NCBI RefSeq assembly: GCF_030013205.1
Contig: NZ_CP122648.1
Source of the DNA: Escherichia coli
GTDB taxonomy: Bacteria > Pseudomonadota > Gammaproteobacteria > Enterobacterales > Enterobacteriaceae
Length of the DNA: 64,000 nucleotides
Reading direction: 5' to 3' (one strand)
Shown piece after piece: positions 58,738 to 59,374 of the stretch. Within the stretch, counting starts at the first letter, position 1. Each line of letters begins with the position of its first letter. The position numbers were made by a program, and so were the translations under genes. The notes under the pieces are model-generated. The model was not told where the DNA came from and searched no databases. It saw only the letters and a list, made by a program, of their open reading frames with translations.

Positions 58738-59316
58738 ATGAGTGAAAAAAGCATTGTTCAGGAAGCGCGGGATATTCAGCTGGCAATGGAATTGATCACC
58801 CTTGGCGCTCGTTTGCAGATGCTGGAAAGCGAAACACAGTTAAGTCGCGGACGCCTGATAAAACTCTATAAAGAACTGCGCGGAAGCCCACCGCCGAAAG
58901 GCATGCTGCCATTCTCAACCGACTGGTTTATGACCTGGGAACAAAACGTTCATGCTTCGATGTTCTGTAACGCATGGCAGTTTTTACTGAAAACCGGCTT
59001 GTGTAATGGCGTCGATGCGGTGATCAAAGCCTACCGTTTATACCTTGAACAGTGCCCGCAAGCAGAAGAAGGACCGCTGCTGGCATTAACCCGTGCCTGG
59101 ACATTGGTGCGGTTTGTTGAAAGTGGATTACTGCAACTTTCCAGCTGCAACTGCTGCGGCGGCAATTTTATTACCCACGCTCACCAGCCTGTTGGCAGCT
59201 TTGCCTGCAGCTTATGTCAGCCGCCATCCCGGGCAGTAAAAAGACGTAAACTTTCCCAGAATCCTGCCGATATTATCCCACAACTGCTGGATGAACAGAG
59301 AGTACAGGCTGTTTAA
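58738..59316 (+). CDS. flhC: Flagellar master regulator FlhC
   Basis: 192-aa [37 protein letters not shown]..., zinc-binding Cys cluster near the C-terminus. Confidence 0.95.
59247..59273 (+). promoter_or_regulatory. Sigma-28 (FliA) class-3 promoter of motAB-cheAW, inside the flhC 3' coding region
   Basis: TAAACTTT-N11-GCCGATAT, 7/8 and 7/8 matches to the sigma-28 consensus. Confidence 0.75.
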
Positions 59317-59374
59317 CTGATACGGTGTGGCGCAACATTCCAGCAGCGGTAACGACGTACCGCTGCTTTTTTTT
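59280..59374 (+). ncRNA. motR: Candidate MotR small RNA (motA 5'-UTR-derived)
   Basis: Transcript from the sigma-28 promoter above would run ~95 nt to the flhDC terminator; fits the published description of MotR as derived from the motA 5' UTR (recalled, sequence not verified). Confidence 0.35.
59341..59374 (+). terminator. Intrinsic terminator downstream of flhC
   Basis: gcagcggt/accgctgc stem with 7-nt loop followed by eight T. Confidence 0.7.

Follow-up and report, generated by a model that had tools for sequence, protein, structure and literature searches.

MotR and its sigma-28 promoter at the flhC–motA junction of an Escherichia coli chromosome

In a stretch of 64,000 nucleotides of Escherichia coli DNA (contig NZ_CP122648.1 of assembly GCF_030013205.1; hereafter the window), a preliminary description made from the letters alone pointed to a near-consensus sigma-28 promoter within the last 70 nt of flhC and to a strong terminator shortly past the flhC stop codon. 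The locus raises the question of what a promoter placed inside a coding sequence produces, and of how far the nucleotide sequence at the end of flhC is held in place by signals other than the protein. The local gene order is otsA, uspC, flhD (58376–58735), flhC (58738–59316), motA (GTG start at 59443), motB, cheA and cheW, and the region is found at ≥95% identity in 5,376 of 5,426 complete E. coli genomes. An IS1H element is annotated upstream of flhD in MG1655; the uspC–flhD gap of the window (57605–58375) has no IS-sized ORFs in the ORF list, and the window strain appears to be without this motility-enhancing insertion.

The promoter, the terminator and the RNA between them

A search with the sigma-28 consensus TAAAGTTT-N11-GCCGATAA finds TAAACTTT-N11-GCCGATAT on the plus strand at 59247–59273, with two mismatches and identical in MG1655. 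The sigma-28 (FliA) −35 element TAAACTTT occupies 59247–59254 (flhC codons 170–173) and the −10 element GCCGATAT occupies 59266–59273 (codons 177–179, Ala-Asp-Ile). Counted back from the end of the flhC stop codon, the −35 box begins at about 69–70 nt, which places the promoter in the last 70 nt of the gene, at the coordinates originally claimed for it. The 64-kb window contains four matches with at most three mismatches compared to 0.56 expected, and none of 100 shuffled sequences reaches four. A sigma-70 scan of the plus strand near the site returned nothing relevant.

Two sigma-28 promoters stand back to back between fliD (31801–33207, minus strand) and fliC, at 33251–33277 on the minus strand (one mismatch) and 33370–33396 on the plus strand (two mismatches); these fliD and fliC class-3 promoters served as internal positive controls of the consensus search. 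A weaker match with three mismatches, TAACGTAT-N11-GCCGATAT, lies at 41657–41683 on the minus strand, about 108 nt upstream of a 74-aa YecF-like ORF (41325–41549, minus strand) and between sdiA-like and uvrY-like ORFs.

The RNA that starts at this promoter can be compared directly with a published one. The 5′-phosphorylated cloning primer SM001, ACAACTGCTGGATGAACAGAGAGTAC, which starts at the +1 of the small RNA MotR (Melamed et al. 2023, eLife 12:RP87151), matches the window once and exactly, at 59280–59305. Its 5′ end is the published +1 (ACAACUGCUGG...), which falls 7 nt after the −10 element. From A59280 to the last U of the terminator at 59374 (plus strand) there are exactly 95 nt, of which 94 are identical to the MotR T7 template published by the same authors, and their definition of the variant MotR* by "TGC at positions 6-8" agrees with 59285–59287. 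In the RefSeq annotation of MG1655 the ncRNA motR (b4828) spans 1977208–1977302, with its 5′ end at 1977302, a length of 95 nt and an overlap of 37 nt with flhC. Correspondingly, MotR nt 1–37 in the window are the last 11 codons of flhC and its stop codon (TAA, 59314–59316, plus strand; nt 35–37). Compared with MG1655 across 216 nt, a segment that begins upstream of the promoter and runs to the motA start, the window differs by a single base.

The exact primer match, the 94/95 identity with the template and the homology to MG1655 motR make it almost certain, as judged from sequence comparison, that the feature is MotR itself, the dual-output class-3 flagellar transcription unit of E. coli. Locus, promoter, +1, length and terminator are those of K-12 MotR, and the one difference is U49 in place of A49, next to the M1 mutation site (nt 46–48) and inside the duplex with rpsJ. 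The arrangement had been called MotR-like; primer, template and annotation bear it out and allow the qualifier to be dropped, the published coordinates coinciding with 59280–59374. Nothing we found contradicts this identification, and the element is thus already characterised and not new. A scan of 57000–61000 against Rfam 15 (E ≤ 1) gave no matches and MotR has no curated Rfam family, which fits the PGAP annotations at the inspected matches in other genomes, where only flhC and motA are marked; motR is annotated only in MG1655.

The intrinsic terminator lies at 59342–59374 on the plus strand and consists of a stem of 10 bp, six of them G-C (59342–59351 paired with 59358–59367), a 6-nt loop (ACGACG) and eight T (U8, 59367–59374). 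It is the strongest terminator-like site in 58000–60500, its hairpin is present in both the MFE and the centroid folds, and it is located 26–58 nt past the flhC stop, in agreement with the 25–60 nt of the first estimate. By its position, the hairpin would end the flhDC transcripts as well as MotR. A 3′ hairpin followed by U8 is the usual Hfq module, and the same segment is likely the Hfq-binding 3′ module of MotR. Transcripts that pass it have a leader of 163 nt to the motA GTG at 59443, of which 59375–59442 (plus strand) belongs to read-through transcripts only and contains the Shine–Dalgarno sequence GGAAGGA upstream of the GTG. The expectation that transcripts either stop after about 95 nt or continue into motA agrees with the account of Melamed et al. 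(2023, eLife 12:RP87151), where a ~95-nt band is lost in a fliA deletion, MotR co-immunoprecipitates with Hfq and longer bands are assigned to read-through of the MotR terminator; these data on expression, sigma-28 dependence and Hfq binding come from K-12.

Constraint on the last codons of flhC

The flhC–motA junctions were collected from 80 species of Enterobacteriaceae, Erwiniaceae, Pectobacteriaceae and Yersiniaceae, with the FlhC protein as an unbiased anchor. In all 80 species the sigma-28 boxes occupy one and the same position; three of them have TAAACTTA as the −35. Enterobacter cloacae DSM 26481 has lost 1 nt immediately behind the −35 (TTT-CC), which leaves a spacer of 10 nt and shifts the flhC frame at about codon 173; the loss may be a non-motile lesion that arose in nature or in the laboratory, or else a mistake of assembly in the C run.

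Because the sigma-28 boxes are at the same time coding sequence, we compared synonymous codon use among the 72 species with ungapped flhC, at 144 degenerate codons whose amino acid is conserved. The median frequency of the commonest codon over these 144 codons is 0.57. Codons 170–172 in the −35 are CGT AAA CTT and codons 177–178 in the −10 are GCC GAT in every one of the 72 species, and FlhC residues 174–176 and 179–180 vary even as protein.

It could be argued that the sigma-28-like sequence is kept only as the code for FlhC R-K-L ... A-D and that the true motA promoter lies elsewhere. The boxes are indeed wholly within coding sequence and the residues they encode are conserved, but a demand of the protein would not freeze the third positions of CGT, AAA, CTT, GCC and GAT next to residues that are free to change, and the published +1 stands 7 nt after the −10. 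Moreover, the account of Fitzgerald et al. (bioRxiv 10.1101/188474) lists FliA ChIP-seq, lacZ fusions and a matching transcription start site in support of the promoter, and reports that FlhC D178A is fully functional. The frozen synonymous sites and this published evidence lead us to reject the coding by-product as scarcely credible. The same account describes the promoter as the most conserved FliA promoter, one that constrains FlhC evolution, and attributes the conservation of Ala177-Asp178 to it; as far as codon usage can tell, our comparison independently reproduces the conclusion that the promoter, and not the protein, drives the conservation of these two residues. The promoter is the FliA motA promoter within flhC that these authors presented as a bacterial "duon" (Fitzgerald et al. 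2014; 2018; bioRxiv 10.1101/188474). Frozen codons 167–169 and 182–187 are not discussed in the preprint text available to us.

The first of these groups belongs to a direct repeat of the CpxR type, GTAAA-AAGAC-GTAAA at 59236–59250 (plus strand), a candidate repressor site that overlaps the −35 box. It comprises flhC codons 167–169 and part of the −35, and the synonymous sites of codons 167–168 and 170–172 are frozen in the 72 species. GTAAA-N5-GTAAA has its sole exact match in the 64-kb window here, where 0.11 would be expected. CpxR-P control of motABcheAW was reportedly described by De Wulf et al. in 1999. In PMC9600279, motA is listed as CpxR-repressed and GTAAA-N5-GTAAA is given as the CpxR motif. 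The promoter is probably subject to repression by CpxR, which would occlude the −35 via the candidate box.

Codons 182–187 (CAA CTG CTG GAT GAA CAG) correspond to MotR nt 2–19 and use one codon each across the 72 species, the lone exception being one sequence at codon 186. Nothing in these six codons is needed by a promoter. The C-terminal tail of FlhC appears to be under nucleotide-level constraint from three sources, the CpxR-type box, the sigma-28 promoter and the 5′ end of MotR. Elsewhere in flhC, the only other frozen synonymous sites (top codon ≥0.95 in the 72 species) are codons 8 and 9 (58759–58764) and codon 45 (58870–58872), and another overlapping nucleic-acid signal may be present close to the flhC start.

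The conserved 5′ end of MotR and the terminator

In an alignment of 40 non-redundant sequences from Enterobacteriaceae and Erwiniaceae, the terminator is 98.4% paired, compared to 20–81% in slid controls. Compensatory changes are found in the three inner pairs (13 double-change cells, a value that 0 of 500 shuffles reach). The seven outer pairs show little or no variation across the 40 species, which is unusual for a terminator.

The outer part of the 5′ arm has a second potential partner at the start of the RNA. The element CUGCUGGA at 59284–59291 (plus strand; MotR nt 5–12, flhC codons 183–185) is exactly complementary to UCCAGCAG at 59339–59346 (plus strand; nt 60–67), and in many Erwiniaceae it reaches 10 nt of complementarity. 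Nucleotides 60–67 consist of the 3 nt on the 5′ side of the terminator stem and the first 5 nt of its 5′ arm, and they are near-invariant in the 40 species even though nt 60–62 are outside the stem. With ViennaRNA, both natural alleles are predicted to form the helix between nt 5–12 and nt 60–67 with P = 0.97 in nascent RNA of 67–80 nt and P = 0.91 at 84 nt; the terminator wins (P about 0.95) only when its full 3′ arm is out, and the gap in the full-length RNA is 3.2–3.8 kcal/mol. Among genomic 25-mers, 1.2% attain complementarity of this strength; for shuffled sequences the figure is 0.1%, and for synonymous recodings 2.1%. The helix is 99.1% paired in the 40 species, and since both strands are invariant, it shows no compensatory changes and is without covariation support.

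We tentatively suggest that MotR contains a constitutive built-in anti-terminator, in which nt 5–12 would pair with nt 60–67 as these emerge, delay the terminator and thereby set the ratio of MotR to motAB-cheAW. On the other side, the strands could rearrange quickly by branch migration into the terminator, which is the more stable of the two. Such a helix, if it forms, would explain the abundance of MotR*, in which nt 6–8 are mutated. Melamed et al. (2023, eLife 12:RP87151) introduce MotR* as "a more abundant derivative ... identified by chance", and the text as searched offers no explanation. In our calculations the MotR* mutation reduces the probability of the helix to 0.04–0.26 and weakens the enforced helix to −12.8 kcal/mol, compared with −23.1 kcal/mol without the mutation; more efficient termination would be one explanation for the higher level. 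An anti-terminator would also explain why the terminator arms are invariant in two families beside an inner stem that co-varies, as well as the six additional frozen codons of FlhC, and with it the "duon" constraint on FlhC would reach beyond the promoter to a structural element in the RNA. Melamed et al. (2023, eLife 12:RP87151) themselves speculate that S10-NusB helps polymerase to read through the motR terminator, an idea compatible with the anti-terminator.

There is, in our estimate, close to an even chance that the frozen nt 2–19 serve some other purpose, as a second seed, a determinant of stability or processing, a protein-binding site (the GGA motif in CUGGAUGA being a candidate) or a partner of the motA leader, namely of the UCC-rich stretch upstream of its Shine–Dalgarno sequence. 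The more distant families speak for such a role. Pectobacterium, Brenneria and Serratia keep the flhC-internal sigma-28 promoter and, for the most part, the MotR 5′ element, and they are without the CCAGCAGCGG terminator; its place is taken either by another hairpin, whose U tract is poor, or by a long structured leader (an intergenic region of 144–218 nt, giving a leader of 180–254 nt from the +1). Pectobacterium and Brenneria retain CAACTGCTGGATGAACAG although their downstream hairpin differs and CCAGCAG is missing, and the predicted partner of the element there is a UCC-rich stretch immediately before the motA Shine–Dalgarno sequence. An equivalent anti-terminator pairing was looked for in Pectobacteriaceae and Serratia and not found. 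Conservation of the 5′ element in Pectobacteriaceae without the complementary arm implies that it has at least one other function, and an account of the 5′ conservation by the terminator alone is weakened by these genomes.

Two further observations point the same way. Melamed et al. (2023, eLife 12:RP87151) report a second, M1-independent footprint of MotR on fliC. The conserved UCC(A) at nt 60–63 can pair locally with GG(A) in the seed region, and two species with a changed nt 60 lose one pair of the long helix but keep this local pairing. On the other hand, the analysis turned up no specific partner for nt 2–19, the pairings in the distant genera come from MFE folds of long sequences and show no covariation, and a role apart from the terminator would leave the contrast between invariant outer arms and co-varying inner stem unexplained. 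CUGGAUGA, and AAGGAUGA at the motA Shine–Dalgarno sequence, are candidate GGA motifs of the CsrA type. A 9-codon AUG-initiated frame within MotR has no Shine–Dalgarno sequence. A 5′ hairpin (nt 5–10 with nt 17–21) was considered as the cause of the 5′-end conservation and set aside: variation at codon 188 leaves no more than a 3-bp CUG/CAG stem conserved.

In the motA leader of the window (59399–59445, plus strand) a hairpin is predicted that would hide the Shine–Dalgarno sequence and the GTG by pairing CAUCCU with AGGAUG and CGAC with GUCG; its energy is no better than that of shuffled sequences (z = −0.23). A CCU-rich stretch recurs at this position of the motA leader in other genera. Since Pectobacteriaceae and Serratia are without the CCAGCAGCGG terminator, an sRNA of the MotR type is supported by sequence only in Enterobacteriaceae and Erwiniaceae, and it may be restricted to these two families.

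The seed allele and the two outputs of the locus

The seed, or rpsJ-pairing, region of MotR is located at 59322–59333 (plus strand; nt 43–54). In the window, GUG is present at nt 46–48, the site of the M1 mutation, and the base next to it is U49 (59328), where K-12 has A49. MotR binds rpsJ about 150 nt into the coding sequence (Melamed et al. 2023, eLife 12:RP87151), and RNAduplex recovers this published site: nt 43–54 of the K-12 allele form 12 contiguous pairs with rpsJ CDS +140..155 at −22.4 kcal/mol. With U49 the duplex acquires a central U·U mismatch and its energy rises to −18.7 kcal/mol, so that the U49 allele is predicted to pair with rpsJ less well than the studied K-12 allele. In rpsJ, nt 49 faces the middle base of a Phe codon. 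Of 5,425 genomes, 5,299 share an identical rpsJ stretch, O157:H7 strains with U49 among them; the stretch is thus unchanged in U49 strains and does not compensate for the mismatch.

The two alleles were counted with BLAST queries built so that every seed spans the SNP. Among the 5,376 genomes, at least 1,160 carry U49 and at least 2,973 carry A49; of the remaining ~1,240, all five that were sampled have U49, in some cases alongside C54A, G40U or a change in the loop. U49 is roughly the allele of half of E. coli. It is also found in E. albertii, Salmonella, Citrobacter and most other Enterobacteriaceae, and by parsimony U49 appears to be ancestral, with A49 as a derived K-12-type allele that improves the match to rpsJ. 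C54A, found in other lineages, also weakens the rpsJ duplex, again without compensation in rpsJ. Because U49 and C54A weaken the duplex with the only well-documented target, the strength of the trans function may vary between lineages. Outside Enterobacteriaceae the seed region is no more than loosely conserved, and long duplexes predicted between MotR and fliC have too many gaps to be interpreted.

The events at the locus can be put together as follows. Sigma-28 RNA polymerase starts at A59280, from the promoter in the last 70 nt of flhC; part of the polymerases stop 95 nt on, at the hairpin and U8, and yield MotR as an Hfq-binding sRNA, and the others read through and make motAB-cheAW mRNA with the 163-nt leader. 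The start, termination and read-through steps are shown by the sequence analysed here and by published experiments. MotR nt 43–54 would then pair within the coding sequence of rpsJ (and in fliC) and raise S10, and S10-NusB would increase read-through of the long flagellar operons and with it the number of flagella, steps for which the published work covers the K-12 allele alone. How many polymerases stop and how many read through may in addition be tuned by nt 5–12 and the terminator 3′ arm competing for the 5′ arm.

The account of the trans function in K-12 (Melamed et al. 2023, eLife 12:RP87151) has MotR pair within the rpsJ and fliC coding sequences, raise S10 and bring about a nusB-dependent rise in the expression of flagellar operons and in flagella number; a chromosomal motR-M1 mutant with a normal MotR level has fewer flagella and is less motile. 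A cis-only view would hold that the terminator is chiefly an attenuator for motAB-cheAW (and the end of flhDC), that the 95-nt RNA is mainly a by-product, and that its trans effects are minor or peculiar to the K-12 allele. The pattern of conservation is in keeping with this, being strongest in the promoter, nt 2–19 and the terminator arms and not in the seed, which is polymorphic in E. coli (A49U, C54A, G40U) with no compensation in rpsJ; so is the mutually exclusive alternative helix, which is thermodynamically favoured in the nascent RNA, and the failure of a compensatory rpsJ mutation to restore the binding of MotR-M1 (Melamed et al. 2023, eLife 12:RP87151). The same paper, however, reports Hfq co-immunoprecipitation and RIL-seq chimeras, an increase of flagella number, rpsJ-gfp and S10 by plasmid-borne MotR acting in trans, and the reduced flagella and motility of the M1 seed mutant at an unchanged MotR level. 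Roles in cis and in trans can also coexist, and taken together the claims of a by-product and of minor or K-12-specific trans effects seem to us improbable. We retain the reading of MotR as an sRNA and a leader at once.

Small RNAs cut from a 5′ UTR by premature intrinsic termination, and leaders with terminator and anti-terminator, have precedents in the riboswitch- or attenuator-derived sRNAs SreA/SreB and in the trp and pyrBI leaders. As in attenuator leaders, a promoter-proximal terminator divides the output of the MotR unit between a short stable RNA and a full-length mRNA, and a mutually exclusive upstream pairing exists on paper. Unlike them, MotR has no evident ligand, leader peptide or sensor, and the proposed anti-terminator would be constitutive and would only set a ratio. 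MotR shares the sigma-28 regulon and the dependence on Hfq with FliX, UhpU and FlgO. These are derived from 3′ UTRs, FliX and FlgO by processing and UhpU from its own promoter inside uhpT, whereas MotR is a primary 5′-UTR transcript. FliX, the fliC 3′-UTR sRNA and published antagonist of MotR, is located in the window at 35266 to about 35458 (plus strand), downstream of a fliC of 595 aa (33473–35260); the FliX 5′ primer matches at 35266, the FliX-S primer matches 35353–35377 with one mismatch, and the terminator ends near 35458.

The side observations made in the window are modest leads and not discoveries. Reading of the sequence alone can recover a 5′-UTR sRNA that is absent from Rfam, in this case as the rediscovery of a characterised element. 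The MotR studied in K-12 carries the derived seed allele A49, and because U49 mismatches the only well-documented target, the conclusions on rpsJ and S10 may not transfer between lineages. A simple mechanism in cis, in which the 5′ end of MotR is set against an arm of its terminator, may determine the ratio of MotR to motAB-cheAW.
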